A stretch of DNA of 64,000 nt, taken from assembly GCA_017404145.1 (NCBI GenBank), contig JAFRCW010000030.1, forward strand, positions 1,051-65,050, read 5' to 3'. The notes under the pieces were generated by a model. That model ran no database searches and was not told the DNA's origin. It worked only from the letters and a program-made list of their open reading frames with translations. The position numbers and the translations under genes are program-made. The first letter of the stretch is position 1; each line of letters starts with the position of its first letter. The stretch comes from Ruminococcus sp. (GTDB lineage Bacteria; Bacillota; Clostridia; Oscillospirales; Acutalibacteraceae). Shown piece after piece: positions 32,093 through 51,495 of the stretch.

Positions 32093-32125
32093 AGAAAAGC
32101 CCTCAACACGTATTTGGCTGAGGGC
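32093..32125 (-). terminator. Rho-independent terminator (minus strand)
   Basis: The minus strand reads GCCCTCA-N13-TGAGGGC followed by TTTTCT. It lies just downstream of the arm-B promoter/core. Confidence 0.5.
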
Positions 32126-32143
32126 TGATTTCTACACTTTTGT

Positions 32144-32420
32144 TTATTCCCATTCGCTTAATTCGTTTTAATACTAAACATATTAGTTTAGTATTAGTGG
32201 TTTTTGATGCATCTTTTACCGCTATTCTGCCTATTATTTTTGGCTTCAAATTATAACAGTATCAAAACAGTATCAACGCTACTGCAATCATTATAGCAGA
32301 AACAAGAGTAAAATCAACACTTTAAGGCGATAAATCGTTTGTAATTTTATATTCTGACTAAATCGAAATAGTGTAACGCTTTTAGGTTTCAAAAGGCACT
32401 GTTTATGCGCTCTTTGAGGA
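32144..32420. repeat. ~275-bp element-end arm, copy B (inverted relative to 3073-3347); starts with core TTATTCCCATTCGCTTA
   Basis: See arm A. A third, more diverged copy in the same orientation lies at 49513-49720. Confidence 0.8.
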
Positions 32421-32468: not shown

Positions 32469-33497
32469 TTATCCTGTAGAATTAATATCTTCCAAAGGGA
32501 ATGTTACTTGCCAAAAACCTTCTGTTTTATTACTGCAAGTGACGAACTCTCCGAAAGCAGTATAGTTGTTGATTTCGTAAGGCGTTATATCATAAATAAT
32601 CTCATCATAACTGCCGATTTCTTCATCATCAAAAAATGATACGTCAAAGTATTCAGCTTTTTTCCCGCTTTTATCTAACAGCGTTATATATCCGTGATTA
32701 TCATAGTTTATAATATCCGTATAGTATACTTGGATATGAAGCTTGTTGTCTATAAAGCCCATATTTGTAACAGTTACGCCATCAACAGGAGAAACAATAC
32801 CTTCATCCACAGGAACTAAACACTTTGTATCAGCAAGAGCGTCGAGATCTAAATCTGTTCCGCTGGCTCCTCTAAACCATTCCGGTGTAAATGTATCCTT
32901 TACCTCGACAGCTTTGCTTAAATCCAGTTCTGATAACTCGCCCTCGAATTTGCTTTTTTTGCTGATGAACTCTCTGAAACCAAATGTGATTTTTTTACCT
33001 CCGATTTCTCTATCATTCGCCTGAGTAATATTGATTAGAAATGTAGCCGTATTTGCTTCTTTATCAAAAGATACTATCTGACAGGATGCGAACGAATCGA
33101 AGCCCCGGTTGATATAATAACTGTCAAATAAGTCTGTAGTTTCATCTATTCTGTTCTGATCTGTCAAATCCTGTAACGAAATATAGATTGCCGCTTCATT
33201 TTCATATACGGCAGCGGATACCACTTCCATCTTAATTCCGTTATCCTCACAGGACATTTGAACAGGCTTCAACATTTGCGCCAGACCGGGTGATATCTGA
33301 TACACTAATTCATAGATGGGATTCACCGTTATAGCAAGCACAGGCACTGTTATTGTTATACAAAGTATAACTGCTACCGCAATAACAATACTTTGCTTAA
33401 AAGATTTCTTTTTGGTTTTTACTGTAAACAGCTTTGCGTTTGTTATCTTATTATCATCTATCTCGCCGATAGCATCAAATAAAATATCAGTTTTCAA
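32469..33497 (-). CDS. Anti-sigma factor-like membrane protein (DUF4179-type)
   Basis: 11-nt overlap with the sigma gene. A short cytoplasmic N-terminus, one TM (IVIAVAVILCITITVPVLAI) and a large extracytoplasmic domain. Confidence 0.55.
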   Translation of the reverse strand: MKTDILFDAIGEIDDNKITNAKLFTVKTKKKSFKQSIVIAVAVILCITITVPVLAITVNPIYELVYQISPGLAQMLKPVQMSCEDNGIKMEVVSAAVYENEAAIYISLQDLTDQNRIDETTDLFDSYYINRGFDSFASCQIVSFDKEANTATFLINITQANDREIGGKKITFGFREFISKKSKFEGELSELDLSKAVEVKDTFTPEWFRGASGTDLDLDALADTKCLVPVDEGIVSPVDGVTVTNMGFIDNKLHIQVYYTDIINYDNHGYITLLDKSGKKAEYFDVSFFDDEEIGSYDEIIYDITPYEINNYTAFGEFVTCSNKTEGFWQVTFPLEDINSTG

Positions 33498-34053
33498 TTA
33501 TAACACCTTCTTCTAATAGTTTAAAGCGTAGTTTTTTTCGAGTTCGGTATAAAATAGATTTTACTTTGCTTTCACTAAACCTGAATTGTTTTGCGATATC
33601 TGAAATACTGTCAAAGTACCAATACCGACAGACAAAAATATTCTGTTCGCACAAAGGAAGCGTATCTAAAAAACTATCTATCAGCTTTGCAATTTCCTTG
33701 TTTTCAAGTTCTTCTACAACGGTTGTTTTTGCAGGAATGCACTCTGATATTTCTTCATATGCATAGTCGATATTACCTCCGCCTCGCTTTTGTGTTCGCT
33801 TGTCTCGCCATTTTTTCAAACTTATAAAGCGAGTGATTTTACCAATAAAAGTAGAAAGCACGGCAGGTCGATGAGGGGGCATACTGTTCCAAGCGTTTAG
33901 GTATGTATCATTGACACTTTCCTTTGCGTCCTCAGTATCGGATAGTATATTATAAGCGATTGAGTAGCAATAACTGCCATACTTATCGGCTGTTTCTGAA
34001 ATTGCTTTTTCATCTCGTTGCCAATATAAATCAACAATATCTTTATCTTCCAC
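33487..34053 (-). CDS. ECF-type sigma-70 family RNA polymerase sigma factor
   Basis: Region 2 (DIVDLYWQRDEKAI...TYLNAWNSM) and region 4 HTH (SISDIAKQFRFSESKVKSILYRTRKKLR). Confidence 0.85.
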   Translation of the reverse strand: MEDKDIVDLYWQRDEKAISETADKYGSYCYSIAYNILSDTEDAKESVNDTYLNAWNSMPPHRPAVLSTFIGKITRFISLKKWRDKRTQKRGGGNIDYAYEEISECIPAKTTVVEELENKEIAKLIDSFLDTLPLCEQNIFVCRYWYFDSISDIAKQFRFSESKVKSILYRTRKKLRFKLLEEGVIIEN

Positions 34054-34162
34054 TACTTTACCTCCTTTTTTGAATTAAGAGCCCTTACACTATACTACCA
34101 CCTAAAAATCATATTTGGTTGCATAAATCTTCAAAAATCATTATAGCACAAAAATATATAAC

Positions 34163-34195
34163 GCCGCCAAGCAGGAGATTATCCCACTTGGCGGC
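34163..34195 (-). terminator. Hairpin homologous to the tnpV-remnant terminator at 1022-1058
   Basis: GCCGCCAAG...CTTGGCGGC. Its reverse complement (GCCGCCAAGTGGGATAATCTCCTGCTTGGCGGC) resembles GCCGCCAAATGGGGTTATCTCCTTCTTGGCGGC. Confidence 0.55.
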
Positions 34196-34396
34196 TACAT
34201 AATATATTTCTAAAAATATTTATTCCCACTCTACTCTCAGACCTTGATTTCCTGTAAAAATACGCACTTTTAATCCGCTTTTTGTGAAGCTATTTCACCA
34301 AATCGCTATCAAATATTCATTCTTCTGGATTTTTGTAGCCAATTTGTAGCCAAGCAAGAACTGTTTCATCAAACACTAGATTATCAATATAATAAT

Positions 34397-35614
34397 TTAC
34401 TTGATATATGAAGATACTCTTTTTGCGCTTTTAAATAAATCAATATTCTTATCGAAATCATATTGCTCTATTGCCTCTTCGTTTGCAAAAGACAGAACTG
34501 AAGTATATCGTGGTTTATCTTCACTTACATTGGCAAGTTTAATGCGGTATTTATTGCCATCAGTGATTATATCTTCAAACACACAATTAAACACATAGCA
34601 TATTGTTGGTAATTCAAGTTTTATTCCCATTAATTCTATTGTTTCAATAGAATGGAATCGAAAAAATACTTCTTTCCCTATATTTTCATGTACATGGTCA
34701 TTAACGTCTTCTAATCCGTTAACATAGTCGACGTTATACCGAGAAACAACTGGTGTTGAGTTGATTAGATTTTGATAAAGCCTTTCAACTTCGCATGCAA
34801 GGTTAAAAGAAATGTTTTCTTGATGGGGAATAAATTTGCAGTTAAGAACGGTTTCTATCTGAAGTAGTTTTTCCCAAAACTGAATTGAATCTTCGGAGAA
34901 ATAATGCTCTTCTTTATTATTGATACTACTTAATGGAGTGCCATTAATACACAACGTTCGATCTAAGAACGCATTAAATATTCTCATTGACGAAATAACC
35001 TCTTCAACTGTTTTTATCATATCAGCTTTTGTATTTATTGTGAAAGATGAAGAGTGATTATGATTATCGATGGTAAAGTGAATATAAATGTATTCACTTT
35101 CTAATGATTCATAAACCATCCTGTGAATACTGTTATCAGGTATTCTGTGAATCATTATATCCACAGAAACCGTACCGGCGGACAGTTTAATTGAATGAGG
35201 TTCAGGAAACTTTTGAGGAGACATAAATCTTTTAGTTTCCATTATGTCAATTGGATCTTTAGGACGGCAAAATAAAAGTTTTTCAGAAATATTCTCACCG
35301 TTGATTGTAACATTCTCTCCATCTACAGGAACCATTTCAATTGGTGTTTGAGAATTATACATATATTCTAACAGTTCATTATATGTGTATTTCTCTCCAA
35401 GTATCTCTTTCTGTGATTCGTTTAGCTTAGGTGTGAAGCCGCCTATTGTTAATGAATCAGCTTTTTCCGGAACAACAGTGCAAAAACCATCTGATAATTG
35501 TTCATACTTGATTCCTTCAGGTAAAGATTTACTTAAATAATCAACAAAGGCGTCGGGTAAACGTTCTTCAGAAGGCTTAGTTAAATCTTGTATTTTGTCT
35601 GGGTTAATAAACAT
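34397..35614 (-). CDS. Unknown 405-aa protein, possibly an AbiGii-like partner
   Basis: No catalytic motif recognised. Its ATG overlaps the stop of the upstream gene (TAATG). Size and pairing match lactococcal AbiGii. Confidence 0.35.
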   Translation of the reverse strand: MFINPDKIQDLTKPSEERLPDAFVDYLSKSLPEGIKYEQLSDGFCTVVPEKADSLTIGGFTPKLNESQKEILGEKYTYNELLEYMYNSQTPIEMVPVDGENVTINGENISEKLLFCRPKDPIDIMETKRFMSPQKFPEPHSIKLSAGTVSVDIMIHRIPDNSIHRMVYESLESEYIYIHFTIDNHNHSSSFTINTKADMIKTVEEVISSMRIFNAFLDRTLCINGTPLSSINNKEEHYFSEDSIQFWEKLLQIETVLNCKFIPHQENISFNLACEVERLYQNLINSTPVVSRYNVDYVNGLEDVNDHVHENIGKEVFFRFHSIETIELMGIKLELPTICYVFNCVFEDIITDGNKYRIKLANVSEDKPRYTSVLSFANEEAIEQYDFDKNIDLFKSAKRVSSYIK

Positions 35615-36435
35615 TAGAAATCCCCTTTCGCCTCATCCCAAATTATTATTTTGGATACAAGTTTTATTTTGTCGCTTTGAGGTATTTCAATCCTATTTAT
35701 TGAATCAATTAACTGATTAAAATCACTTTGATTCTCAACAATAAGATATTTTATATCTTGATAATTAAACTTTAGTGCTACATCGTTGTATTCACGTAAA
35801 GAATCATTGAGCTTATTGATATATTCCGATCCCATACCATCATTAATAATGAATGGAGGATAATCAATAGAGGAGAGATCTGGGACATATCTCCATTCAC
35901 ATTCATCAGTAAAACACTTAACGTCCTCTTTTTTTGTGCGCCTGTTTCGTGATTTCCCAGAGTAAGGCTTGTAATATAGAAGTTGATGATAAATGAAGGA
36001 CTTTAATTTTCTCTGTAATACCGTTTCTCTTTTATAGGTTTTATTCATTACATCAGAAAAAACCATTGTAGCTTCTTTTGCAAGCTTAGAGTCGGGATTA
36101 AGATAATGAATGGGCTGAATGTAATTTTTCATACCCCATTCTTTTGAAAATGCAATTCCACATGCCCCATAATAATCTATATGATCGCCTAATTGATGGA
36201 GCTTAATATCGCAAAAACACCTCATTGGAATTGATAGATAGTTAATATTTTTTATTTTGAGATACTTAACATCCTCATTGCAATATCGAGCAGGAATTCT
36301 ATTATGCACAATAATATCAATTAACCACTCAACTTTTTCCATGAAATGAAAGAGAGTGTCTGGTTGCAGAGTGGAAGAAGTATGCTGGCTATTACCGATG
36401 CTTTCAACATTATTTAAATCTATTCGGTTACTCAT
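35614..36435 (-). CDS. AbiGi-like / DUF2971-like protein
   Basis: N-terminal TLFHFMEKVEWLIDIIVHNRIPARYCNED...IPMRCFCDI...YGACGIAFSKEWG resembles the AbiGi family signature as I recall it. Start placed at MSNRIDL (RBS GAGGA). The ORF track extends to 36456. Confidence 0.45.
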   Translation of the reverse strand: MSNRIDLNNVESIGNSQHTSSTLQPDTLFHFMEKVEWLIDIIVHNRIPARYCNEDVKYLKIKNINYLSIPMRCFCDIKLHQLGDHIDYYGACGIAFSKEWGMKNYIQPIHYLNPDSKLAKEATMVFSDVMNKTYKRETVLQRKLKSFIYHQLLYYKPYSGKSRNRRTKKEDVKCFTDECEWRYVPDLSSIDYPPFIINDGMGSEYINKLNDSLREYNDVALKFNYQDIKYLIVENQSDFNQLIDSINRIEIPQSDKIKLVSKIIIWDEAKGDF

Positions 36436-36624
36436 GGTTATCCTCATAATCAACATAGTTATGAGTTAATTATATAAATACTGACTAATTCTGTCAATCG
36501 TTAATATTACAAAACTTTCATACAAAAGAATAAAACTGTAACCAGAAAATAGTTGATAACAAGAGGTTAATGTGGTATGCTATTTTTATATTACAATACT
36601 ATTAAACTGTAAGAGGAAAATAGC

Positions 36625-37230
36625 ATGGTGAGTAATTATGAAATTGCTAAAGCTGTCATAACTGAAAATGACGGTATTGCGACAACACTCCAACTGAAAA
36701 ATGCCGGTCTTCAGAATTATGAAATCGGAAATCTATATAAGAGCAATCTGATCAGCAGAATAAGACAGGGTTTTTATTGCCTTCCGGATGAACTAATCAG
36801 CGACGAACAGCTATTGTCTACCGTTTTGCCGGAAGGAATCGTATGCTTGGAATCTGCGCTATATCATTATGGTTATAGCGACTATACACCATCGTCATGG
36901 GCGCTTGCGGTTCCGAGGACGATCTCTCAATCAAAGCTAAAAATACATGGTCTTGCTATTACACCCCATTATGTTCCTGCATCAAATTATTCATTGGGAA
37001 AGACTTCTTCTGATTTTAACGGATACATTCTCCTGATCTATGATAAAGAGAGAACCATATGTGATTGCTTTAAGTATCGAAACCAAATGGATAGCGAAAC
37101 ATTTGCAAAAGCAATTAATGCGTACTGTGCAGATAACCAAAAAAACCTGACTATTCTATCAAAGTATGCAAAACAACTTAGAGTATATAAAAAGGTTACT
37201 GAAATGATGGAGGTACTATTGAATGGCTGA
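36625..37230 (+). CDS. AbiEi-family type IV toxin-antitoxin antitoxin
   Basis: N-terminal wHTH ...GIATTLQLKNAGLQNYEIGNLYKSNLISRIRQGFYCL, followed by the AbiEi C-terminal domain. Overlaps the next gene by 8 nt. Confidence 0.7.
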   Translation: MVSNYEIAKAVITENDGIATTLQLKNAGLQNYEIGNLYKSNLISRIRQGFYCLPDELISDEQLLSTVLPEGIVCLESALYHYGYSDYTPSSWALAVPRTISQSKLKIHGLAITPHYVPASNYSLGKTSSDFNGYILLIYDKERTICDCFKYRNQMDSETFAKAINAYCADNQKNLTILSKYAKQLRVYKKVTEMMEVLLNG

Positions 37231-38074
37231 TAAAGCAGCGTCCGTTCTTGCGAGATTGAAAAATAAGTCGGTTGAATCCGGACGGAGTTATCAATTGTGC
37301 TTACAACTTTTCTGTCAGGAAGAGTTTTTGCGTCGTCTGGAAAAATCAAAATATGTAGAAAACTTTGTACTGAAGGGCGGCTTATTCATCTACACGCTGA
37401 CTGAATTTGAGAGCCGCGTAACAATGGATATAGATCTCCTTCTTCAAAAACTTCCGAATACGCCTGAAGAACTTGAGCCAATTATTATGGATATCATTTC
37501 CACCGATACCGAAAACGATTTTATTATGTTTGAGTTAAAAGGCATACAGCCTATATCAATAGCAAAAAAATACGCTGGCATCAGCGCATCATTAGTTGCT
37601 GTCATAAAAAACACGAGAACACCAATTAAGATCGATTTTGGTGTGGGCGATGTGATCGTTCCAACAAAAGAGAAACGATCTATACCAACTCAGCTAGATG
37701 ATTTTGAAAAGCCGGTTATTAATACATATTCGCTTGAAACGACGATTGCGGAAAAGATAGACGCCATACTTGATTTGATGGAATATTCAAGTCGTATGAA
37801 AGACTATTATGATCTTTACTATTTACTGACGCACTTTGAATTTGATAATGATACACTTGCAGAAGCAATGAAGAAGACTTTTGAAAATCGGAACCATCAC
37901 TTCACCATAGAACAATATAAACAAGTGCTGCGCTTTGGTGATGATGATGCCATGCTAAAGAAGTGGAATGCTTTTATTAAGAAAACCAAATTACAATTCA
38001 TTGATTACCGGATCGTAATAGAGACGATAGACTCTGAGATTGGCAATGCTATTACATATGTGCTGAAAGGATAA
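37223..38074 (+). CDS. AbiEii/AbiGii-family nucleotidyltransferase toxin (DUF1814)
   Basis: FVLKGGLFIYTLTEFESRVTMDIDLLL nucleotidyltransferase motif. 283 aa. Confidence 0.75.
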   Translation: MADKAASVLARLKNKSVESGRSYQLCLQLFCQEEFLRRLEKSKYVENFVLKGGLFIYTLTEFESRVTMDIDLLLQKLPNTPEELEPIIMDIISTDTENDFIMFELKGIQPISIAKKYAGISASLVAVIKNTRTPIKIDFGVGDVIVPTKEKRSIPTQLDDFEKPVINTYSLETTIAEKIDAILDLMEYSSRMKDYYDLYYLLTHFEFDNDTLAEAMKKTFENRNHHFTIEQYKQVLRFGDDDAMLKKWNAFIKKTKLQFIDYRIVIETIDSEIGNAITYVLKG

Positions 38075-38079
38075 ACAAT

Positions 38080-40572
38080 ATGAAAAGGATAGACATTATT
38101 AATAGAATCGGCGACAATTACCACATTGGAAATACTGAAACGGGTGAATTCAGCTATGTTCAAGCATTAAAAACTGTTGGAAAAGATATTAAGGACTATC
38201 AAAAAGGATCAACCGGCACAAATCATCAGTTTTTGGATATTAGGTTTGAGAATGAAAGATTGGCTATTCTTGTAGAATGTAAGAATAAATTCAGCAAATG
38301 GGATAAAACAAAAATCCAAAGCCAGTTACAAGACTATGTTCGTTATGAAAAAGCATATTCTGACAAGAAAATCGTTGCGATATTAGCTGAAACTGATGGT
38401 GATGATGTTTGGGTTTGGTATGGTCAATCTGTAATTATTGATGATGAACACCGAGTAGAAGATGAAAAGGTCCTTCGTCCTTTTGCTGACTACGAGAATC
38501 TGTGCTTTGGTAGAGTTAACGACAAAATCAAAGTTGTTGACTCAATAAAAACGCTTAACGAGAAACTTCATTCTGACGGCATTAATGAGAAGTTACGTAG
38601 CCAGTTTGTAGGGACTTGTCTTCTTGCGTTAAAGAACGGACTAGTATACAATGATGTAAAAGAAACTATTAATCCTTTAACTGGAAAGAAAATGTCACCG
38701 GAAAAAGTAATATTAAAGAGCATAAAGGACATCTTAGAAGGATTACTTACTCGTGGTGGAGATTTAAATAAAGCGGGAAAAATCGCTGTTTTAAACAATA
38801 AAGTATTAGGGGATCAAGATGTTAGAGACCTTACATATGAAGAATTAAAGGACGTTCTTTCTTTTATTGACGATTACGTTGTTCCGTATATTAATGACAA
38901 AAATACCGCAGGGCAAGATTTGCTAAACTTATTTTTTACAACATTCAACAAATATGTTGGAAAGTCTGATAAGAATCAGGCGTTTACTCCTGATCATATC
39001 TGTGATTTTATGAGTAAAGCAGTTGGTGTTAATAAGAATTCAAGAGTGTTGGATCCTTGCTGTGGAAGTGGTGCCTTCTTGGTTAGGGCAATGACTGACG
39101 CAATGGATGATTGTGATACCGAAGAAGAACGTGAGAAAGTAAAGAAGAATCAGATTTTTGGTATCGAATATGAGGAAGGAGCTTATGGCCTTTCTTCTAC
39201 CAATATGCTTATTCACGGCGATGGTAATTCAAATGTGGTACAAGATTCAATGTTTAAACGTGCAAAATGGATAGCAGATAATAATATAAACGTTGTATTA
39301 ATGAATCCACCTTATAATGCCACCAAAAAATGTTGTGACCCTCAGTATACAAAAAATTGGAGTGTGAACAAAAAAGAAGATCCATCAAAAGGTTTGCATT
39401 TTGTTGAATGGGTAGCGAAACAAGTACCCTCAACATGTAAAATGGCCGTCTTATTACCTATGCAAGCTGCTATTGGCAATCAAGGTGACACAGAGTTATT
39501 TAAAAAAAAGATGTTAGAAAAGTATACACTTGACGCAGTCTTTTCATTACCTGAGGATATGTTTTATCCTGGAGCATCAACTGTTGCATGTTGTATGATT
39601 TTTGATCTTTCTCAGAGACATGAAAGGTCAAATCGCGAAACCTTTTTTGGTTATTTTAAAGATGATAAGTTTGTAAAAAGAAAAGGGCTAGGTAGAGTAG
39701 AAAAAACAGATGATGAAGGTAGCAGTTTATGGACTCAAACAGAAGAAGTCTGGCTTGATTTATACAGAAATAGAAGAGAGCTTCCTGGCTTTTCGGTTAA
39801 GCACAAAGTAACCTATGAAGATGAGTGGCTTGCAGAAGCGTATATGGAAAAAGACTATTCTGGTTTATCAATATATGATTTCTATAATACTATTAACCTT
39901 TTCTTTTCCTATGTTATTGCAAAAGGATCAATTCATAACACTGACAAAAAATGGATGGATGAATATATTAGTTCTCTATATGGTGAAGTCAACAATAACG
40001 CAAAACAAAATAAGGCATTAGACCTTAATACCGGTGAATGGAAAGAATTTAGAATAGGATCCTTGTTTGATATATATCCTACAAAAGCATATAGTGGGAT
40101 GTCTTATAGAGACTTACACGATGGTGGAAATATTCCTGTAATCGCAAACAGTGCATTAAATAATGGAATCAAAGGTTTTTCAACTTTAGAACCAACCGAA
40201 AAAGGTGGCATAATAACATTTAGTGATACTACAGAAGACAACACGTTCTTTTATCAGCCAGAACCTTTTATCGGGTTTGCACACGTTCAAGGAATGCATG
40301 CAATATCACATGAATGGACAGAAAAACAATTACTGTTTTTAGTGACAATACTTACCTTTGCAAACGCAGATTTGTTTAACTACGGAAGAAAAATGCGTCG
40401 AGATACCATTTCAGACAGCTTTATCAAATTGCCTGCAAAAAAAGATGCTAATGGGTATGTTATTGATGATAATAAAACATTTTCAAATGACGGTTATATC
40501 CCAGATTGGGAATGGATGGAAGACTACATAAAATCCTTACCAAACAACGCTAAAAAGCAAGGTGATATGTAA
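38080..40572 (+). CDS. Single-chain restriction-modification-like enzyme (PD-ExK-like N-domain + N6-adenine methyltransferase + HsdS-type TRD); type IIG-like
   Basis: N-terminus has D...ExK (FLDIRFENERLAILVECKNK). Methylase motif I is VLDPCCGSGAFLV and motif IV is VVLMNPPYNA. The C-terminus (EWKEFRIGSLFDIYPTKAY...IPVIANSALNNGIKGF) is like a type I S-subunit target recognition domain. Confidence 0.6.
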   Translation: MKRIDIINRIGDNYHIGNTETGEFSYVQALKTVGKDIKDYQKGSTGTNHQFLDIRFENERLAILVECKNKFSKWDKTKIQSQLQDYVRYEKAYSDKKIVAILAETDGDDVWVWYGQSVIIDDEHRVEDEKVLRPFADYENLCFGRVNDKIKVVDSIKTLNEKLHSDGINEKLRSQFVGTCLLALKNGLVYNDVKETINPLTGKKMSPEKVILKSIKDILEGLLTRGGDLNKAGKIAVLNNKVLGDQDVRDLTYEELKDVLSFIDDYVVPYINDKNTAGQDLLNLFFTTFNKYVGKSDKNQAFTPDHICDFMSKAVGVNKNSRVLDPCCGSGAFLVRAMTDAMDDCDTEEEREKVKKNQIFGIEYEEGAYGLSSTNMLIHGDGNSNVVQDSMFKRAKWIADNNINVVLMNPPYNATKKCCDPQYTKNWSVNKKEDPSKGLHFVEWVAKQVPSTCKMAVLLPMQAAIGNQGDTELFKKKMLEKYTLDAVFSLPEDMFYPGASTVACCMIFDLSQRHERSNRETFFGYFKDDKFVKRKGLGRVEKTDDEGSSLWTQTEEVWLDLYRNRRELPGFSVKHKVTYEDEWLAEAYMEKDYSGLSIYDFYNTINLFFSYVIAKGSIHNTDKKWMDEYISSLYGEVNNNAKQNKALDLNTGEWKEFRIGSLFDIYPTKAYSGMSYRDLHDGGNIPVIANSALNNGIKGFSTLEPTEKGGIITFSDTTEDNTFFYQPEPFIGFAHVQGMHAISHEWTEKQLLFLVTILTFANADLFNYGRKMRRDTISDSFIKLPAKKDANGYVIDDNKTFSNDGYIPDWEWMEDYIKSLPNNAKKQGDM

Positions 40573-41822
40573 TGAAAATCAATTTAGTTGAAATCAAGAA
40601 TTTTAGAAAACTTTTAAGCTGTAGAATAGACTTTAGCGAAGAATCTACTGTTTTTGTGGGAGCAAATAACAGTGGAAAGACCTCTGCTATGCTCGCCTTA
40701 ATTAAGTTTTTAAAAAAGCGATCTATTGTATTAGATGACTTTACTATCTCCAATATTGCTTCAATTCAAAAACTGGGAGAAAAGTATGTTGATGAAGAGA
40801 CCCCTCATAGTCCATCTATTAGCGAATGGAGTGAACTGTGTCCTTTTTTAGATGTATGGCTCGATGTGAAAAGCGATGAGTTAAGATATGTCGCAAATAT
40901 TATACCAACGCTTTCATGGAGAGAGGGGAAAATAGGGATTCGTCTGGTTTTTGAGCCCGATAATGTTGAAACCTTATATAGAGCATATATTGATGCTTAT
41001 AATCTATCTAAAGAAAGATCTAATAAACAAGTTAAACTCTGGCCTGCTTCTTTACCTGACTTTTTACAAACGAAAATCTCATCTTTCTTTAAAATCAACG
41101 CTTATATTTTGGACGAAAGCAAACTCGTTTCTCCTCGCGGAGATAATACTGCGCAACCACAAGAGACACCTTATCATTCTTCTCCGTTGAATTTTGACCC
41201 TTTCAAAAAGTTAATAAGAATCGATACCATTTCCGCTCAGAGATGGCTTGATGATTCAGACAGTGATTCGTCTGAAAAGACTAAAGATAACAGTCTTCTT
41301 TCACAGCAACTTCGAGATTATTATGATAGGCAGTTGGATCCTGAGCGAAAGCCTTCCGCCTCTGACATAAAAGCGCTAAAAGAAGTACAAAAAGCAAAAG
41401 ATGTCTTTGACACCCAGATTACCAAACGGTTTCAATCTGCAATGAATGAACTATCTACCTTTGGGTATCCGGGTAAACGAAATCCAAAAATAATAATTGA
41501 ATCCAGAATGCAAACAAGCGATATTTTGACCCACAGTACTTTGGTAAAATATCCTATTTACAATGACGGAACAGATGATTATAAATTATCAGAAAAATAC
41601 AATGGATTAGGGTATCAGAACTTGATATCTATGTCCTTCAGATTAATGAGTTTTCGTGATTCCTGGATTAATGGAGATAAAAGAAAGCCAGATGATGAAA
41701 CAATTGAAATGATTCCTCCTATTCATTTAGTGTTGATCGAAGAACCTGAAGCACATTTACACGTTCAAGTTCAGCAAGTGTTTATTAAAAACGCATACAA
41801 AATTCTTAGAAATAACTCTTAA
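40572..41822 (+). CDS. OLD-family/ABC-type ATPase, N-terminal portion (ends at an in-frame TAA)
   Basis: Walker A GANNSGKTS, Walker B-like HLVLIEEPEAHLH. Its ATG overlaps the stop of the upstream gene (TAATG). Confidence 0.7.
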   Translation: MKINLVEIKNFRKLLSCRIDFSEESTVFVGANNSGKTSAMLALIKFLKKRSIVLDDFTISNIASIQKLGEKYVDEETPHSPSISEWSELCPFLDVWLDVKSDELRYVANIIPTLSWREGKIGIRLVFEPDNVETLYRAYIDAYNLSKERSNKQVKLWPASLPDFLQTKISSFFKINAYILDESKLVSPRGDNTAQPQETPYHSSPLNFDPFKKLIRIDTISAQRWLDDSDSDSSEKTKDNSLLSQQLRDYYDRQLDPERKPSASDIKALKEVQKAKDVFDTQITKRFQSAMNELSTFGYPGKRNPKIIIESRMQTSDILTHSTLVKYPIYNDGTDDYKLSEKYNGLGYQNLISMSFRLMSFRDSWINGDKRKPDDETIEMIPPIHLVLIEEPEAHLHVQVQQVFIKNAYKILRNNS

Positions 41823-41852
41823 CTAAAAGGCAATAGTCCGTATACAACACAG

Positions 41853-42788
41853 ATGGTAGTATCTACACATTCTAGTACTATTGCTCTCGAATCATCATTT
41901 ATTAATTTGAGATATTTTAGAAGAACAAAAAGTGAGAATGGTCTTCCAATATCAAATGTAGTAAATCTTTCAGATGTATTTGGAGTGTCAAATAATACCA
42001 CAAGATTTGTAACGAGATATTTAAAAACGACACATTGTGATTTATTCTTTGCGGATGCAGCTATTCTAATTGAGGGGGCAGCCGAAAGAATATTTATGCC
42101 GTATTTTATTAAAAGATATGAACAACTAGGGGAGTCATATCTTTCTGTATTAGAGATAGGAGGACGGTATGCTCACTATTTCAAGCCGCTAATCGATGTG
42201 TTGGGTATAACTTGTTTGGTTATTACAGATTTGGATTGTTCTCATAAGAAAGGAAACAATAGAACTGCGTCAATTCAACCTCAAAGAGGACAAGGATACT
42301 TTTCATCAAATCCGACAATAAAGAATTGGATTATTCAGAATGAAGATCTGGATTGTTTACTTGACTTAAGCTTTGAACACAAGGAAGAAACTAATCTGAA
42401 TACTCCTAATGCGAAAACGAGGATTGCGTATCAAACCCCCATAAAAATCACTCTTTCCAATGGGGCTGAGAACGAGTTTATTCCAACCACATTTGAGGAT
42501 TCCTTGGCTTATTCCAATTTTGAATCCTTCAAAAAAATGCGAAAAACTGGCTTAATAAATAAAATAAAAAAAGCATTCAATGAAACAGATGCTACAACAA
42601 TTGCAAAGAAAACATATGAGGCAATAAAAGCAAAAGGTGTTGATAAAGCAGAATTTGCCTTAGATCTGATTTTTTATAAAAATCCAGAAGATATTGTTAC
42701 ACCAAATTACATAGATGAGGGATTGAATTGGCTGCAAGAAGAGTTGAAATCGAAAGATTCTAGCGATTTCTTGGAAAAGGAGGTGTAA
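41853..42788 (+). CDS. OLD-family C-terminal portion: ATPase H-loop plus TOPRIM nuclease domain
   Basis: Same frame as 40572-41822. QMVVSTHSS (ABC H-loop), TOPRIM ILIEGAAE ... VITDLD. Confidence 0.65.
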   Translation: MVVSTHSSTIALESSFINLRYFRRTKSENGLPISNVVNLSDVFGVSNNTTRFVTRYLKTTHCDLFFADAAILIEGAAERIFMPYFIKRYEQLGESYLSVLEIGGRYAHYFKPLIDVLGITCLVITDLDCSHKKGNNRTASIQPQRGQGYFSSNPTIKNWIIQNEDLDCLLDLSFEHKEETNLNTPNAKTRIAYQTPIKITLSNGAENEFIPTTFEDSLAYSNFESFKKMRKTGLINKIKKAFNETDATTIAKKTYEAIKAKGVDKAEFALDLIFYKNPEDIVTPNYIDEGLNWLQEELKSKDSSDFLEKEV

Positions 42789-42791
42789 ATA

Positions 42792-44651
42792 TTGGAAACT
42801 GTGCCTGTAATAACGGATGATAATAGGGATGATACAGCGGATGAAATAATCGACAATTGTCTAAGTATAAATAAACCCAAAAGCTTTTTTATGTTTGCCG
42901 GTGCGGGAAGTGGAAAAACACGCAGTTTAGTAAAAGCACTAAATAGCATAAAAACTAAGATTGGAACAACCCTTTTACAAAGTGGAAGAAAAGTGGCTGT
43001 TATCACATATACTAATGCGGCAAGTGAAGAAATCAAGCAAAGAGCTCAATACAATCCCCTTTTTGAAATATCAACTATTCATAGCTTTTCATGGTCATTA
43101 ATATCGGCTTACACTAATGATATTCGAGATTGGCTAAAAGCAAAACTTGAAAAAAGAATTGATGAGTTAACACAACAGCAGTCAAAAAGTAGAAGTAAAA
43201 CGACAAAAACCTATTTAGAACGCGCTGAAAAGATCGTTAAGCGTACGGAAAGACTTCGTTACTTAGATACTGTAAAACGATTTATCTACAATCCAGATGG
43301 ACTAAACCTTGAAGCTAATTCTTTGGATCATGCGGAAGTAATTCAAATAACTGCTGATTTTTTGACATCGAAGCCAACCTTCAAAGCTGTTTTTATAGAT
43401 AAGTATCCTATTGTTTTGATTGACGAAAGCCAAGATACAAAGAAAGAACTTATATCAGTTTTGTTTAGCGTACAGCAAGAATACAAAGATAGATTTTTGC
43501 TTGGTTTGTTTGGGGATACGATGCAGCGAATCTATTTAGATGGAAAAGAAGACTTAGCTGAATCAATTCCTGATGACTGGGAAAAGCCCTGCAAAGTTAT
43601 GAATCACCGCAGCCAAAAAAGAATAGTAGACTTGTGCAATGACATTAGAAAAGATGCTGACGGTATTCAACAATGCTCCAGGACAGATAAACCTAACGGA
43701 ATTGTTCGAGTATTTATTACAGATAACGAGGATGCTTTTGCCTGTGAACAAATTGCCAGAAATAGAATGAGCAGAATAACTGGTGATAATGATTGGGAAG
43801 ATATCGAAAAGATAAAGAGCTTGACAATTGAACATAAAATGGCTGCTTCACGTTTGGGATTTAAATCATTTTTTGATTATATGAATAATGTGAATTCATA
43901 TAAACAAGGATTAGTAAAAGGAGATTTATCAGTAATAAGCCTTTTTACACATATTCTTATCCCTTTACAAGATGCTTATTATTCTGACAATCAATTTGAA
44001 ATTATGAGAATCATAAGAGAGCATTCTATAGATTTTGATCGTCATAAAGATTCATTAACCTCTGGTGTTATTGAATCGCTAAAGCAGTCTGTCGAAGAGT
44101 TGCTCTCCCTATTAAGCAATGAACATAGTACATGTAGAGATTTACTTAATATAGTGTATGAAAAAAGACTTTTTCAACTGCACAAGGATTTGCTTAGGTT
44201 ATTAGAGGATTTCCCATCCGAAGATGATAATGAATATGATAAATACATTAATCTAAAAAAAGCTCTAGATTCTGAGTTCATTGAGATTAAGAGATACTAT
44301 ACCTATGTCCAAGGAAAAGCAAGCTTTGATACACATCAAGGTGTAAAAGGACTAGAATTTGATCGTGTAATGGTTATTATTGATGATAAAGAATCAAAGG
44401 GAACTACATTTAGTTATAACAGACTATTTGGAGTAGAAGATAAAACAGAGAGAGACAGAAAGAACGAAAGAGAAGGTAGAGAAACCTCGGTGGATCGTAC
44501 GCGTAGATTGTTATATGTTACTTGTAGTCGAGCAAAAGAAAGCTTAGCAATAGTGTACTATACTCCGTCAATTGATGACACCTATAAAGCGATACTTTCT
44601 ACAGATTGGTTTACAGAAGAAGAAATAGAAGCATTAAGGGCAGAGGTTTGA
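42792..44651 (+). CDS. UvrD/PcrA/Rep-like superfamily-1 helicase (GajB-like)
   Basis: Walker A FAGAGSGKT, DExx VLIDESQDT, C-terminal GVKGLEFDRVMVI and LLYVTCSRAKESL. TTG start 8 nt after AAGGAGG. Confidence 0.8.
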   Translation: METVPVITDDNRDDTADEIIDNCLSINKPKSFFMFAGAGSGKTRSLVKALNSIKTKIGTTLLQSGRKVAVITYTNAASEEIKQRAQYNPLFEISTIHSFSWSLISAYTNDIRDWLKAKLEKRIDELTQQQSKSRSKTTKTYLERAEKIVKRTERLRYLDTVKRFIYNPDGLNLEANSLDHAEVIQITADFLTSKPTFKAVFIDKYPIVLIDESQDTKKELISVLFSVQQEYKDRFLLGLFGDTMQRIYLDGKEDLAESIPDDWEKPCKVMNHRSQKRIVDLCNDIRKDADGIQQCSRTDKPNGIVRVFITDNEDAFACEQIARNRMSRITGDNDWEDIEKIKSLTIEHKMAASRLGFKSFFDYMNNVNSYKQGLVKGDLSVISLFTHILIPLQDAYYSDNQFEIMRIIREHSIDFDRHKDSLTSGVIESLKQSVEELLSLLSNEHSTCRDLLNIVYEKRLFQLHKDLLRLLEDFPSEDDNEYDKYINLKKALDSEFIEIKRYYTYVQGKASFDTHQGVKGLEFDRVMVIIDDKESKGTTFSYNRLFGVEDKTERDRKNEREGRETSVDRTRRLLYVTCSRAKESLAIVYYTPSIDDTYKAILSTDWFTEEEIEALRAEV

Positions 44652-44728: not shown

Positions 44729-45883
44729 TCAACGCTTGTTATATGTGTTTAATCCCTTTGTTTCTTTCGCTTGTCCTATTAGACTATTGAGCTTGGCTTT
44801 TCCGAGAGATTTTTCCAGTAGCCGATAGGATTTGTTTTGCTCGCGGAGCAGGGTGTTGGTCTCTTGGAGTTGAGTGTTTTTATATTTGAGGTGGCTGTTC
44901 TCTTGGGCAAGTTGATCGTACAGCCTGCGGAGATGGTAGTAGTTATCCCAGCCCTCAACGCTTTTAGCAATTACCGTTTTAATGAGGGATTTCAGACGTC
45001 TGATTAGCGGCTCTACGATCTTTTGCTTATAGCTTTTGGCAGACATCAGGGGCTGCGGCTCCGGCAGTTGGAGCTTTGGGCTGGCGGTGAGTTCGCGCTC
45101 GATGTGATCGAGAGAGACCTTTGCTTCTTTGACCTTTCCGACCGTCGCTTTCAGTTCTTTGATCTCCATTTGCTTATCTTCGATCTGCCGTTCGAGCTTG
45201 GCAACCTCTTTGGCTCGCTCCTGCTTTTTGAAGTCGAGGACGGATAGGTGCTGCTCATGGGTGCCTTTCTGCTCCCACTCGATACCGTGCCGTTCCATGA
45301 TTTGTGCAAGCACTTTCTTTTCGGAGAGGATCCAGCGGTTCAGCTCGTTGTCATCCCTGCCCTGTCCTTCAAAGCCTTGATGGAGCAAAGCTTTTTTGAG
45401 AGATACACGCGTTTCCAATCCGCGCTTACTGCCGGTTGTGAACGGGATAAAGTCGATATGGAGATGCGGCGTCGCTTCATCCATATGAAGGTGAGCGGAG
45501 AACACTCGGAGATACGGATTTCGTTTTTGGAAACCCTGATAGTATTCATCGAGGATCGTCCTTGCCAGCTCAGCTTGGCTGCCGGTCGCTGACATATCTT
45601 CCTTGTTTCCGATTTGAAAGATGACCTCATGGAATGGCTTTTCCTGCTTGCCGGTGCGGATTTTTTCATAGTAGTTGGGGATCACGCGATCCTTGCGTTT
45701 TTGCTTTGCGTTATATTTCGCCAGCGCATCATCGAACATTTCATGATACACTTTCTTGATTGGCTCATTGCAATAATCAATGTTGAGGTGGGTACGCTCG
45801 CTGTCCACGTTCTCCGTCGTGAAGCTGCGGCTGTTGTGTGTTACGGAGCCTTTACCCACCATAGCGCTTATCGTTCTTTTCAA
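44729..45883 (-). CDS. MobV-family (Pre/Mob) relaxase
   Basis: HLHMDEATPHLHIDFIPF histidine motif and a coiled-coil C-terminus. 384 aa, colinear with 60258-61412. Confidence 0.85.
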   Translation of the reverse strand: MKRTISAMVGKGSVTHNSRSFTTENVDSERTHLNIDYCNEPIKKVYHEMFDDALAKYNAKQKRKDRVIPNYYEKIRTGKQEKPFHEVIFQIGNKEDMSATGSQAELARTILDEYYQGFQKRNPYLRVFSAHLHMDEATPHLHIDFIPFTTGSKRGLETRVSLKKALLHQGFEGQGRDDNELNRWILSEKKVLAQIMERHGIEWEQKGTHEQHLSVLDFKKQERAKEVAKLERQIEDKQMEIKELKATVGKVKEAKVSLDHIERELTASPKLQLPEPQPLMSAKSYKQKIVEPLIRRLKSLIKTVIAKSVEGWDNYYHLRRLYDQLAQENSHLKYKNTQLQETNTLLREQNKSYRLLEKSLGKAKLNSLIGQAKETKGLNTYNKR

Positions 45884-46090: not shown

Positions 46091-47278
46091 TCAATCCGTG
46101 TCAACTGTGTCGGTGCTTAGCACACCCCCACATATGCTGTCACAGGTGTCACGCTTTGACACGCCGCCCATATAGGTCAGCGTGATCTTGCGTCCGTCAT
46201 GCGTCCGCCTGTAGTGATAGGCTATCTTGTATTCATCCATTAATCGGCTGACGTTGACATTCAGTTTTTGCGTGATTGCGTTTGACTTGATGTCAAAGCT
46301 AAGATATTCACATAGCTCTGTCGGTGTTCCACACCATTGAGGATTATCAGTATTTATTCGCTCGGCAATTCTTTCAAGCAACGGCTCCGGTGGTGCTTTC
46401 CAAAGTTCTGTTTCAACTTTGTCCAACACCCAAACAAGTCTTTCAACGTCTCTTTTGAGGAATAGTCGCTGATCTTGTTGATCACGTGCAGAAACATCCA
46501 GAGTTGCGCTGTTGGAGGTGCGCCTGTCCTTTGTAAGAAGGAAGGCACCATCTGCAGCACCGAGTAGGCCGTTGGTTCCGGAGATCATATCGAACTTGTC
46601 GTCGGCGTTTTGCTTTCTGGTATGGTGTACCAGCAGCAAACAAATACCGTGCCTTGAAGCAAGACCTTTCATCGCGGCGATGATTTGGTAATCACTTGCG
46701 TAGCTGTAATTATCGCCGCCTGCTTCACGTACCTTTTGCAAGGTATCAATGATAATTAGAGAAGTATCAGGATATTCTCTAACGAAAATATCTACTTGTT
46801 TGTCGAGCCCTTTACTGATACAATCAGCAGAAACCGCAAAGAAAAGGTTTTCGTTTTCTGCTGTACCGAACATCCGGTACAACCGCTTCTGCAAGCGTGC
46901 GTAATCATCCTCTAATGCTAAGTAAAGCACCGTGCCTTTTCGGACAGGGTAATCCCACAGTTGCGTTCCTGAACTGACATGGTAAGCGAGCTGAGCCATA
47001 AAAAAGCTTTTCCCGATCTTTGGGGCGCCTACAAAGAGATAAATGCCCCGATAGAGCAAGCCGTCGATGACCGGCGGCTTACCCTGATAGGCGTTGTCGA
47101 ACAACTCCGACATGGTAACGGTTTTGAAGCCCGGCTTGTCCGACAGATCCCAATGAAAATTTTTCTTGCAATCGTCAGACAAGTCTGATATACTGTTTTC
47201 ACAGGATTTTTGAAGTGACTGCCTTTCATCTGTTGCCGCAGATGATTTGAGGGCAGTCATTTCCTTTTTGTCGGTCAT
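46091..47278 (-). CDS. AAA_25/RepA-like ATPase (TnpY-like)
   Basis: Walker A VGAPKIGKSF, LALEDD, Walker B LIIIDTLQ, HHTRK. Confidence 0.75.
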   Translation of the reverse strand: MTDKKEMTALKSSAATDERQSLQKSCENSISDLSDDCKKNFHWDLSDKPGFKTVTMSELFDNAYQGKPPVIDGLLYRGIYLFVGAPKIGKSFFMAQLAYHVSSGTQLWDYPVRKGTVLYLALEDDYARLQKRLYRMFGTAENENLFFAVSADCISKGLDKQVDIFVREYPDTSLIIIDTLQKVREAGGDNYSYASDYQIIAAMKGLASRHGICLLLVHHTRKQNADDKFDMISGTNGLLGAADGAFLLTKDRRTSNSATLDVSARDQQDQRLFLKRDVERLVWVLDKVETELWKAPPEPLLERIAERINTDNPQWCGTPTELCEYLSFDIKSNAITQKLNVNVSRLMDEYKIAYHYRRTHDGRKITLTYMGGVSKRDTCDSICGGVLSTDTVDTD

Positions 47279-47673: not shown

Positions 47674-48267
47674 ATGGATAAATGGGATAATACAGCAATC
47701 GGAACAAGGATAAAAAACCTTAGGAAGAATAAGGGCTATACGCAGCAGGAGCTTGCTGACATCATCGGTAAATCTCTGCGGACGCTTCAAAAGTATGAAA
47801 CAGGCGAGATAGAGGTATCCATCGCCGTGGTCAATCAGCTGGCAAAGGAGCTCGACACGACGCCGACGTTTATCCTCGGTTATGATACAGAGATCGAGCC
47901 GATCCGTACCCTTGCCGATGTGATGAACTATCTGTTTCATATCGAGCAAGTCGAAGGACTGGAATTCAGCATCGACGTCAAGCGACCGCCGCGTAACAGT
48001 GAGTGGACTTGCGCGCTGACCTTCAAAGGAAAGAACGTGAATGCCGAGTTAAATCAAGATATGTGTTTATTCTTGGAGGATTGGGGAAGCCAGCGTGATT
48101 CACTCCGTACCTACGATAGCACACAATCCGATTACCGCGAGTGGAAGGAAAGAACGCTCGCGTACTACTCTCCTACTGAGGTAAAGCAAAAAGAGACAGA
48201 GGATCTTAGCGAAGAGGAGAGACGGCAGAAGCGAATCGAGTATTTGAACAGTATAAAGCCAGAATAA
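47674..48267 (+). CDS. XRE-family HTH regulator
   Basis: IGTRIKNLRKNKGYTQQELADIIGKSLRTLQKYETGE. Confidence 0.8.
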   Translation: MDKWDNTAIGTRIKNLRKNKGYTQQELADIIGKSLRTLQKYETGEIEVSIAVVNQLAKELDTTPTFILGYDTEIEPIRTLADVMNYLFHIEQVEGLEFSIDVKRPPRNSEWTCALTFKGKNVNAELNQDMCLFLEDWGSQRDSLRTYDSTQSDYREWKERTLAYYSPTEVKQKETEDLSEEERRQKRIEYLNSIKPE

Positions 48268-48325
48268 CAATCAAATAGGGTAATAAGGAAATCAGGGTCT
48301 GAGATAACATTTGAAAGGAGCAATT

Positions 48326-49402: not shown

Positions 49403-49717
49403 ATGGCTACAAAAATTTGCTCTCATGTAGCCATTTTGTAGCCAACAAAAAAGAAAAGTCCCGAAGGACGGCTCTATTAAGCCATTCTTCGGGATGATTA
49501 GTGTTTATTTGTTTATTCCCACTCGCTTAGTTGGAAAGAATATGTTTTTGATGATGGTGAATAACCGTATAAAAAGAAAGTTTTTATCAAACAAATATTC
49601 TAATTATACTTAGTTTAACTTCTCTTGGTATCAAAATCGTATCAGTGTTTCTATGAATGTATCATAACACAGATCAATGATAAATTCAACACTTTAAAGC
49701 AAAAAACATTACTGTTT

Positions 49718-51163: not shown

Positions 51164-51495
51164 ACGATCACCTCTGTTAATTATTATAACTATACTTTTA
51201 TATTTTGTCAATAATAATTATAAGTATACTTGAAAATGATAACATAATCTTGAAGGGCAACCATTAGTAGATGTCCTTAGTGACTACTCACAAGGAAATA
51301 CGTTATTACTCCTACTTGCTCCTGATTATCTGAGCTTAAATAGTTTTGTATAGGCGAATTGCCACAGAGTATCAGGAGTGTTTGTAATGCTCATGAAAGA
51401 TAAATGGTTTTCAAGTTATAGAAGGCAATGTGAGATTTTCTTGAAAATCATTATTGTAGGTGATATTCTAATACTATTGAGAAAACTAACTTTTC

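Follow-up and report, generated by a model that had tools for sequence, protein, structure and literature searches.

The window (the whole 64,000-nucleotide stretch of Ruminococcus sp. DNA analysed here) carries on its minus strand two co-oriented genes, abiGi (35614..36435), which encodes a 273-amino-acid protein of the AbiGi family, and after it abiGii (34397..35614), which encodes a 405-amino-acid protein of the AbiGii family. At the coupling junction (GGGGATTTCTAATG; 35612..35626, minus strand), which reads ...GGGGATTTCTAATGTTT..., the TAA stop codon of abiGi (35616-35614) and the ATG start codon of abiGii (35614-35612) overlap by a single base. The sequence GGGGA, which also encodes the C-terminal Gly-Asp of AbiGi, stands 6 nt upstream of the abiGii ATG, a spacing that suits a Shine-Dalgarno sequence. 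The ORF list and the sequence agree in this with the preliminary description of the locus, which had reported two minus-strand ORFs (273/280 and 405 amino acids) overlapping at TAATG in AT-rich DNA; GC content is 0.318-0.325 across 34-36 kb (about 32%), compared with 0.45-0.55 in the flanking DNA on either side of about 32-45 kb.

The abiGi reading frame extends beyond the internal ATG at 36435 (ORF 35614..36456, minus strand) to alternative starts at ATG 36447 and ATG 36456, which would give proteins of 277 and 280 amino acids, respectively. The 273-amino-acid start is more likely than the 280-amino-acid start, because a Shine-Dalgarno-like GAGGA (36445-36441, minus strand) precedes ATG 36435 by 5 nt, because the -10 hexamer of an upstream promoter-like site ends at 36469, too close to ATG 36456 for a leader to fit between them, and because the nearest relative on a long contig is called at 273 amino acids. 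The promoter-like site (36469..36497, minus strand; TTGACA, 17-nt spacer, TATAAT, 12/12 consensus) is located inside the 170-190 bp divergent intergenic region common to abiGi and abiEi, and is the sole perfect sigma-70 consensus site within 34000-36700; the total of promoter-like sites in this region is not above that of shuffled sequence, and the site is taken here as a pattern match, a putative promoter. Some 200 nt beyond the abiGii stop codon is an intrinsic-terminator-like hairpin (34163..34195, minus strand; 14-bp stem with 9 G-C pairs and a T-rich tail), by far the strongest of three terminator-like sites in the region, where shuffled sequences lead to an expectation of 1.0. With one promoter-like site upstream and one terminator-like hairpin downstream, the abiGi-abiGii operon looks intact. 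Scans with Rfam models and for tRNAs gave no match in or near it.

An integrative mobilizable element of approximately 17 kb carries the abiG pair as cargo, together with AbiE (AbiEi/AbiEii, 36625-38074, divergent from the abiG pair), a restriction-modification-like gene (a type IIG-like methyltransferase, 38080-40572), and Gabija (40572-44651). All of these defence genes are on the plus strand, opposite to the abiG pair, as had been noted before. The GajA gene next door is broken by an in-frame TAA. A DUF2971 (PF11185) protein is also encoded within the window (51496-52335). The nearest long-contig relative has the same backbone, with AAA_25 and Mob_Pre and, further along, AbiEii-AbiEi and then the diverging AbiGi-AbiGii; its middle cargo differs. 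Placement of the pair in a defence island, already proposed in the preliminary description, is borne out by the AbiE and Gabija neighbours and by the neighbourhoods of homologues. The 84 genes immediately adjacent to the homologues in 21 other loci matched 42 PADLOC models at E<=1e-10 (among them Zorya II, AbiL, DrmD, ThsB, and restriction-modification), against 2 models for 34 non-island genes of the window, a comparison in which models, not proteins, are counted and the control set is small. Serine and tyrosine recombinases were also found among the 84 neighbours. On an Enterococcus plasmid, AbiG homologues lie beside the toxin-antitoxin genes MazF and Fic.

Family membership of both proteins was established by profile and pairwise searches. 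AbiGi matches Pfam AbiGi (PF10899; E 1.2e-26, 94.3 bits, cutoff 22.4) and PADLOC PDLC02331 (8e-87, profile positions 7-260 of 260), and AbiGii matches Pfam AbiGii_2 (PF16873; E 1.6e-45, 156 bits, cutoff 25, profile positions 18-367 of 397) and PADLOC PDLC02332 (1e-79, profile positions 12-376 of 378). The lactococcal pair used for comparison was the annotated abiGI/abiGII of L. lactis plasmid NZ_CP094475.1, located via AbiGi; in BLASTP, AbiGi shares 33% identity with lactococcal AbiGI over its full length (E 2e-39) and AbiGii shares 24% identity with AbiGII over 289 amino acids (E 1e-7). Lactococcal AbiGII itself scores 524 bits on PF16873, the same model that matches the window AbiGii. The Pfam, PADLOC, and BLASTP results confirm what had been a tentative AbiGi/AbiGii identification, and because these family matches are clear, the fallback that had been offered, an undescribed two-component system, is not needed.

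The NCBIfam equivalog models NF042957 and NF042958, by contrast with the family models, gave scores below their cutoffs (104.5 bits, cutoff 300, and 33.6 bits, cutoff 275). By these scores, the window proteins are members of the AbiGi and AbiGii families, not equivalogs of lactococcal AbiGI and AbiGII. A tblastn search of plasmids with AbiGii found matches only in Bacillus and Niallia and none in Lactococcus, indicating that AbiGii is strongly diverged. As judged from sequence similarity, the pair is unmistakably, though distantly, related to AbiG, and at such a distance from the characterised prototype its trigger and target specificity may be different. In all, 327 AbiGi homologues were found, and an exhaustive profile search returned 659 AbiGii cluster representatives at E<=1e-3. 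Proteins 99-100% identical to the window pair are present in public metagenome data, and relatives at 78-99% identity have unchanged lengths.

In other genomes, 55 of 76 loci have an AbiGii homologue immediately after the AbiGi homologue, and a T(A/G)ATG overlap, within a junction of the form GGNGAT-TTY-T(A/G)ATG, is present in 40 of 47 clean homologous pairs; on this comparative record, the adjacency of abiGi and abiGii is not a chance juxtaposition of ORFs. Conservation is unequal between the partners: in each of the 47 pairs, AbiGi is the better conserved (on average 42% identical to its window counterpart, versus 30% for AbiGii). AbiGi is also found without AbiGii, either solo or beside unrelated genes, and AbiGii is absent from distant AbiGi lineages. 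Two proteins considered as a hidden AbiGii were rejected by hhalign, namely a 403-amino-acid protein encoded after AbiGi on an E. coli plasmid (probability 0.1%) and the 340-amino-acid partner of the window's DUF2971 protein (probability 0.05%).

The AbiGi superfamily has an invariant set of residues (E54, C75, D76, H85, Y89, K156, and E178-x-E180-W-R182), of which the acidic, Cys, His, and Lys members are invariant from Bacillota to Bacteroidota and Pseudomonadota. The N-terminal LFHF...RYC.E pattern that had first drawn attention to this protein maps to L28, F29, F31, R50, and E54, positions at which the family shows little or no variation. The AF2 model of AbiGi (pLDDT 88.6, pTM 0.86) is a compact alpha/beta protein for which Foldseek found no significant neighbour in the PDB (best E 0.8) or in BFVD (best E 0.03). 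Because there is no significant structural neighbour, a nuclease or hydrolase role for AbiGi is suggested only by the residue pattern and by a local Foldseek match to PspGI that spans 38 residues and is insignificant (E 2.3, probability 0.35); the spacing of the invariant D76, K98, K156, E178, and E180 is unlike the canonical PD-(D/E)XK arrangement D...(D/E)xK.

In AbiGii, conserved polar residues identified across 177 diverse homologues are Y37, Y84, Y86, N87, Q89, N105, R157, S162, K249, E254, and Y280, with conservation of 100% for Q89, 99% for Y37, and 94-95% for R157, E254, and Y280. The protein has a strongly conserved site of its own (YxYNxQ at 84-89, N105, and R157-x-P-x-x-S162), which could be a novel active site. 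No recognisable catalytic signature emerged from these 177 homologues, in keeping with the earlier remark that the 405-amino-acid protein has no catalytic motif. Foldseek found no significant neighbour of the AbiGii model (pLDDT 86.4, pTM 0.75) in the PDB (best E 0.011, TM below 0.12), and profile searches of PDB sequences with both families gave nothing below E 0.5; the lactococcal AbiG proteins are likewise without fold relatives according to a 2026 review (PMC13064643). A reading of AbiGii as a HEPN RNase, by way of the segment HRIPDNSIH (R157-IPDNSI-H), was rejected, the histidine not being conserved among homologues. This segment falls in a beta-strand region of the AF2 model, as opposed to the all-helical HEPN domain, and HEPN was matched neither in Pfam nor among the top 50 PDB fold matches of AbiGii, all of which are insignificant. 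All family-invariant residues are kept in the window pair.

Lactococcal AbiG blocks lytic phages after DNA entry and impairs phage RNA synthesis, and phages escape via mutations in the major tail protein (PMC13064643 and PMC12184496). Expression of this protein alone reduces the viability of AbiG-carrying cells (PMC12184496), which identifies lactococcal AbiG as a trigger-activated, abortive-infection-type defence. We consider it probable, at roughly 0.8, that the window pair is an intact two-gene AbiG-family anti-phage operon on a mobilizable element, with AbiGi the likelier effector and AbiGii the likelier sensor or adaptor. AbiGi and AbiGii would be made in a fixed ratio and would probably act as a complex, in which AbiGi, the likelier catalytic effector, would probably act on nucleic acid, and AbiGii, the likelier sensor or adaptor, would recognise a phage structural protein. 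AbiGi is the likelier enzyme because it has the invariant residue set, is always the better-conserved partner, and occurs without AbiGii; AbiGii is the likelier sensor or adaptor because it evolves faster and has no catalytic signature, although neither its faster divergence nor its lack of a known motif is proof of such a role.

Database names assign the opposite roles, AbiGii being called the toxin and AbiGi the antitoxin. It is possible, though we put the chances well short of even, that these labels are reversed, and that AbiGi is a novel-fold catalytic effector working alone or with interchangeable partners while AbiGii is a fast-evolving tail-protein sensor module. If true, AbiGi would be no "antitoxin" but would represent an effector superfamily, widespread and so far uncharacterised, to which DUF2971 may belong. 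The invariant site of AbiGi also extends to IncF plasmids of E. coli, where it occurs in the leading region.

The best-surviving alternative is an AbiG defence with conventional roles, in which the effector, halting transcription or killing the cell, is AbiGii, and AbiGi is a sensor or regulator. The motif set conserved across 177 AbiGii homologues would fit a functional site, in many two-gene systems the role of "toxin" falls to the larger, second protein, and a similarity of 31% over 19% of AbiGii to the HEPN-predicted AbiUii has been reported (2026 review, PMC13064643). However, the HEPN Rx4-6H motif is not conserved, R157 being kept while the downstream histidine (SIHR) is replaced in aligned homologues; the AbiGii model has no fold relative in the PDB; and AbiGii is the faster-diverging member of every pair and the one missing from distant AbiGi lineages. 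We regard this assignment of roles as tentative and somewhat unlikely.

An improbable explanation takes the pair for a type IV toxin-antitoxin (or addiction) module, in which AbiGii would be a growth-inhibiting toxin curbed by AbiGi and the module would serve mainly to stabilise the element, any phage defence being a side effect. Pfam and NCBI do name AbiGi "antitoxin" and AbiGii "toxin," but the Pfam descriptions themselves say "putative," and the enzyme-like invariant residues sit in the supposed antitoxin. The two genes are arranged as a translationally coupled bicistron and reside on a mobile element, they adjoin AbiE, a proven type IV toxin-antitoxin system (PMC3985639), and homologues on plasmids lie beside other toxin-antitoxin genes (e.g., those Enterococcus neighbours); yet when lactococcal abiGi and abiGii were cloned separately, neither was toxic in E. 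coli, where only AbiEii was toxic (Dy et al. 2014, PMC3985639), and the lactococcal system becomes toxic only upon co-expression of the phage major tail protein (PMC12184496). AbiGi-family genes without any AbiGii would also be unexpected for a dedicated antitoxin. Least probable is a decaying, non-functional remnant. In its favour, the adjoining GajA, with its in-frame TAA, suggests that some cargo may be degenerating, and the window AbiGii deviates from the family consensus by F5P, F9Q, and G219R, all three at well-conserved positions. These substitutions are common to its whole clade, however, which points to variation of that lineage rather than to decay. Neither ORF is truncated, each spanning almost all of its PADLOC profile, and the family-invariant residues are all present. 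The promoter-like site, both Shine-Dalgarno-like sequences, the stop/start overlap, and the terminator-like hairpin show no damage, and relatives at 78-99% identity have the same lengths.

For PADLOC, DefenseFinder, or the NCBI annotation pipeline, the abiG pair would be a routine AbiG call, and it matters little for the window itself. What it contributes is a well-resolved instance of AbiG from gut Clostridia, borne by an integrative mobilizable element that is compact and keeps the AbiE-AbiG pair constant while the middle cargo varies. AbiG is among the few classical Abi systems still without a known fold relative or biochemical activity, and the invariant set of AbiGi, the faster divergence of AbiGii, the occurrence of AbiGi without AbiGii, and the conserved junction offer both mutagenesis targets and a testable effector hypothesis.

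Comparison with DUF2971 proteins had been suggested together with the AbiGi identification; the AbiGi part of that suggestion stands, and the DUF2971 part is borne out only faintly, by weak DUF2971 matches in 6 of 56 AbiGi homologues. Like AbiGi, DUF2971 proteins are about 270-280 amino acids long and occur in defence-type neighbourhoods, and an E-W-R-Y motif occupies a similar position in AbiGi and the window DUF2971 protein (ECEWRYV versus QKEWRYV). Kinship is nevertheless statistically unsupported: the best E was 0.16, a DUF2971 (PF11185) search with the window AbiGi gave no match, and hhalign of AbiGi against the window DUF2971 protein gave a probability of 1.4%. To our knowledge, DUF2971 has no known function, and its likeness to AbiGi therefore says nothing on mechanism.

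AbiE, like AbiG, is a two-gene, translationally coupled, Abi-type module on mobile elements, is often mistaken for AbiG in database annotation (PMC3985639), and forms with it the divergent pair kept in the nearest related element. AbiEii is a GTP-binding nucleotidyltransferase toxin and AbiEi a DNA-binding, autoregulating antitoxin, and the window AbiG proteins have no sequence or fold similarity to either. AbiP, AbiB (major capsid protein), and Avs (terminase/portal) have phage structural proteins as triggers, the same logic of late-protein sensing as in AbiG; they belong to unrelated protein families, and sensing of this kind by the window homologue would be by analogy.

The closest counterpart is lactococcal AbiG itself, the form in which the system was originally discovered, whose prototype abiGi/abiGii lies on plasmid pCI750 and whose two genes belong to the same two families, in the same order and on the same strand, as those of the window. 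Gene spacing is nearly equal, with a 2-nt gap in Lactococcus and a 1-nt overlap in the window, and the proteins are of similar size, 293/397 amino acids as annotated in the lactococcal system compared with 273/405 in the window. Both pairs reside on mobile DNA, a conjugative plasmid in one case and a chromosomally integrated mobilizable element in the other, and in very different hosts, a lactic acid bacterium (cheese-making lactococci) and a gut Clostridia-type bacterium. The AbiGi proteins of both have in common the core motifs LF.F, RY..E, PM.CFCDI.LH, YG, KP, and DE.EWRY.PD.

The two genes lie on the minus strand: abiGi at 35614-36456 (280 amino acids, with internal ATGs at 36447 and 36435 that would give 277 and 273 amino acids) and abiGii at 34397-35614 (405 amino acids). 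One base is common to the TAA stop of abiGi and the ATG of abiGii (GGGGATTTCTAATG). The ORF list and the sequence bear out the preliminary description of two minus-strand ORFs (273/280 and 405 amino acids) with a TAATG overlap, in very AT-rich DNA (GC content approximately 0.32, versus 0.45-0.55 beyond the 32-45 kb stretch) and on the strand opposite to the neighboring defense genes, all of which are on the plus strand. The only perfect-consensus sigma-70 promoter-like site (TTGACA, 17 nt, TATAAT; 12/12 matches) lies at 36497-36469, and a terminator-like hairpin with a 14-bp stem at 34195-34163, both on the minus strand. Shine-Dalgarno-like sequences precede both genes; that of abiGii, GGGGA, lies 6 nt ahead of the ATG and doubles as the C-terminal Gly-Asp codons of AbiGi. 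The 273-amino-acid form of AbiGi is favored over the longer forms because GAGGA is found 5 nt upstream of the ATG at 36435, because the -10 hexamer, ending at 36469, leaves only 12 nt to the ATG at 36456, and because the closest relative on a long contig is called at 273 amino acids.

The pair had tentatively been identified as AbiG, correctly according to Pfam, PADLOC, and BLASTP comparison with the annotated pair of a Lactococcus lactis plasmid. The first protein matches PF10899 (AbiGi; 94 bits, cutoff 22.4, E = 1.2e-26) and, over its full length, the PADLOC AbiGi model (8e-87); the second matches PF16873 (AbiGii_2; 156 bits, cutoff 25, E = 1.6e-45) and, again over its full length, the PADLOC AbiGii model (1e-79). 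AbiGi shares 33% identity with lactococcal AbiGI over its full length (E = 2e-39), and AbiGii shares 24% identity with AbiGII over 289 residues (E = 1e-7). Lactococcal AbiGII itself scores 524 bits on PF16873; the Pfam family is therefore built around the prototype. Neither window protein reaches the NCBIfam equivalog cutoff (104 versus 300 bits for AbiGi, 34 versus 275 bits for AbiGii). Judged by these profile scores, the two proteins are classed as members of the AbiG family, not equivalogs, and the pair belongs to a known family that standard tools would find.

Imperfect direct repeats in three co-linear blocks (32122-32334 and 49491-49706, approximately 17.37 kb apart; examples are TTTGTTTATTCCCAYTCGCTTA and TAAAWTCAACACTTTAARGC) bracket the low-GC cargo together with a Mob_Pre relaxase (44729-45883), an AAA_25 protein (46091-47278), an HTH regulator (47674-48267), and a tyrosine integrase (48311-49402). 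The arrangement points to an integrative mobilizable element approximately 17.4 kb long, with the repeats as its probable ends. AbiG is near the left end, separated from the left repeat only by an ECF-type sigma factor (188 amino acids) and a DUF4179 anti-sigma-like protein (342 amino acids), encoded at 32469-34053 on the minus strand, within the low-GC element and immediately 3' of the abiG terminator-like hairpin; this pair is unusual cargo for a defense island.

On the other side, AbiEi/AbiEii (36625-38074, plus strand) is transcribed divergently from abiGi/abiGii and is followed on the same strand by a gene for an 830-amino-acid type IIG-like fusion (38080-40572), which joins an N6-adenine methyltransferase domain to a type I specificity (Methylase_S) domain. 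The fusion is recognized by PADLOC models of type IIG restriction-methyltransferases (5.5e-51) and has no obvious separate nuclease gene beside it. The Gabija genes come next, also on the plus strand. gajA (40572-42788) is broken by a single in-frame TAA at 41820-41822 into two ORFs in the same frame, 40572-41822 (GajA profile positions 1-413 of 736) and 41853-42788 (positions 426-729), and is followed by an intact gajB (42792-44651). A nonsense mutation (pseudogene) or a sequencing error could account for the split, or this may be a truly split ATPase/TOPRIM GajA.

Of the relatives on long contigs, the closest (AbiGii identity 78%) shares its AAA_25 and Mob_Pre backbone with the window, and the divergent AbiEii-AbiEi and AbiGi-AbiGii pairs recur there (7538-11218 of locus L081). 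Its middle cargo differs, comprising a type I-like restriction-modification system (methyltransferase and specificity subunit) and a GmrSD-like gene, whereas the window carries Gabija and the IIG-like methyltransferase. At 21 other loci, the pair's two nearest genes on either side were scanned. Together these 84 proteins matched 42 PADLOC models (E <= 1e-10), among them Zorya II ZacB/ZacC, AbiLi, DrmD, ThsB, AriA, RT-TIR, and restriction-modification; the proteins also comprised two tyrosine integrases, five large serine recombinases, an IS21 IstB, and common housekeeping genes. As a control, 34 non-island genes of the window matched two models, a rough comparison in which models rather than proteins are counted and the control is small. 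These figures point to enrichment of defense-island and mobile-element genes beside AbiG.

A word-indexed search found 327 relatives of AbiGi; those of AbiGii numbered nine by single sequence and 38 by profile, and an exhaustive profile search returned 659 cluster representatives (E <= 1e-3). Gut and rumen Clostridia (Oscillospiraceae, Ruminococcus, Lachnospiraceae, Acutalibacteraceae) account for most of the 76 loci compared (one genome per species); others are in Bacilli, Selenomonas, Paenibacillus, Bacteroidota, and Pseudomonadota. An AbiGii homolog lies immediately 3' of AbiGi in 55 of the 76. Relative to the window proteins, AbiGi is the more conserved partner in all 47 clean pairs (mean identity 42% versus 30%), and the GGNGAT-TTY-T(A/G)ATG junction overlap seen in the window is present in 40 of them.

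No AbiGii was detectable beside the distant AbiGi homologs of Bacteroidota and Pseudomonadota, which are followed by unrelated genes or the contig end. AbiGi-family genes occur in approximately 46 Escherichia coli plasmid records; one, on the IncF plasmid pEQ011 (locus L078, 3959-4780), stands without AbiGii in the leading region, flanked by a DUF905/ParB-like/psiB block on one side and an Avs4 gene on the other. A 403-amino-acid protein 3' of AbiGi on another E. coli plasmid was rejected as AbiGii (hhalign probability 0.1%). At two Bacteroidota loci (L072, 694-3207; L074, 10748-14320), AbiGi-like genes are followed, overlapping or 4 nt apart, by genes for proteins of 837 and 1190 amino acids that neither match a Pfam family significantly nor resemble AbiGii; these may be alternative partners of the AbiGi module.

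In lactococci, the major tail protein is mutated in every AbiG escape phage; expression of the p2 major tail protein lowers viability only in AbiG-carrying cells, and the escape allele abolishes this AbiG-dependent toxicity (Mosterd et al. 2025, PMC12184496). Lactococcal abiGi and abiGii are each non-toxic alone in E. coli (Dy et al. 2014, PMC3985639), so the "toxin/antitoxin" labels are unproven. Confident structure models of AbiGi (pLDDT 88.6, pTM 0.86) and AbiGii (pLDDT 86.4, pTM 0.75) had no significant structural neighbor in the PDB, nor had the AbiGi model in BFVD; profile searches against PDB sequences found nothing. From Bacillota to Bacteroidota and Pseudomonadota, AbiGi is invariant at F29, F31, E54, P70, M71, F74, C75, D76, I77, H85, Y89, G90, P108, Y111, S116, K156, E178, E180, W181, R182, P185, and Y230, and nearly so at C73, K98, and D177; the invariant set resembles an active site. 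In AbiGii, the polar residues conserved across 177 diverse homologs (Y37, Y84, Y86, N87, Q89, N105, R157, S162, K249, E254, Y280) include no metal-binding or HEPN-type signature. A HEPN-type reading of the Rx6H of the window AbiGii fails, its histidine varying among homologs. Because the residue patterns of the two proteins differ, we propose with modest confidence that AbiGi would be the effector enzyme and AbiGii a sensor or adaptor, the reverse of the database labels. Both the invariant residues and the asymmetry between the partners offer testable leads for AbiG biochemistry. The AbiGii clade of the window departs from its family at three otherwise well-conserved positions, P5 (93% F), Q9 (86% F), and R219 (88% G); the P5 and Q9/E9 changes are common to relatives 78-81% identical and are therefore lineage-specific, not damage.

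Just outside the element, a second low-GC patch (51496-53397, plus strand) encodes a DUF2971 protein of 279 amino acids (PF11185, E = 7.6e-6; weak PADLOC PDC-S31 match) and then a 340-amino-acid protein with no family match. The two resemble AbiGi/AbiGii in size and layout, and an EWRY motif is common to the DUF2971 protein and AbiGi. Adjoining them is an AAA_14/DUF4143 ATPase gene (49718-51211, minus strand; PADLOC candidate PDC-S01, 3e-68). Cohesin/dockerin-domain proteins are encoded to the right of the island (53896-59794, plus strand; one ORF of 1472 amino acids), and the best AbiGi matches are from Ruminococcus and Oscillospiraceae, which together suggest a cellulosome- or amylosome-bearing Ruminococcus-like host. 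Compared with the prototype, the window AbiG has another host and a distant sequence (identities of 33% for AbiGi and 24% for AbiGii), and it resides on a probable integrated mobilizable element, whereas the prototype is carried on a conjugative plasmid.
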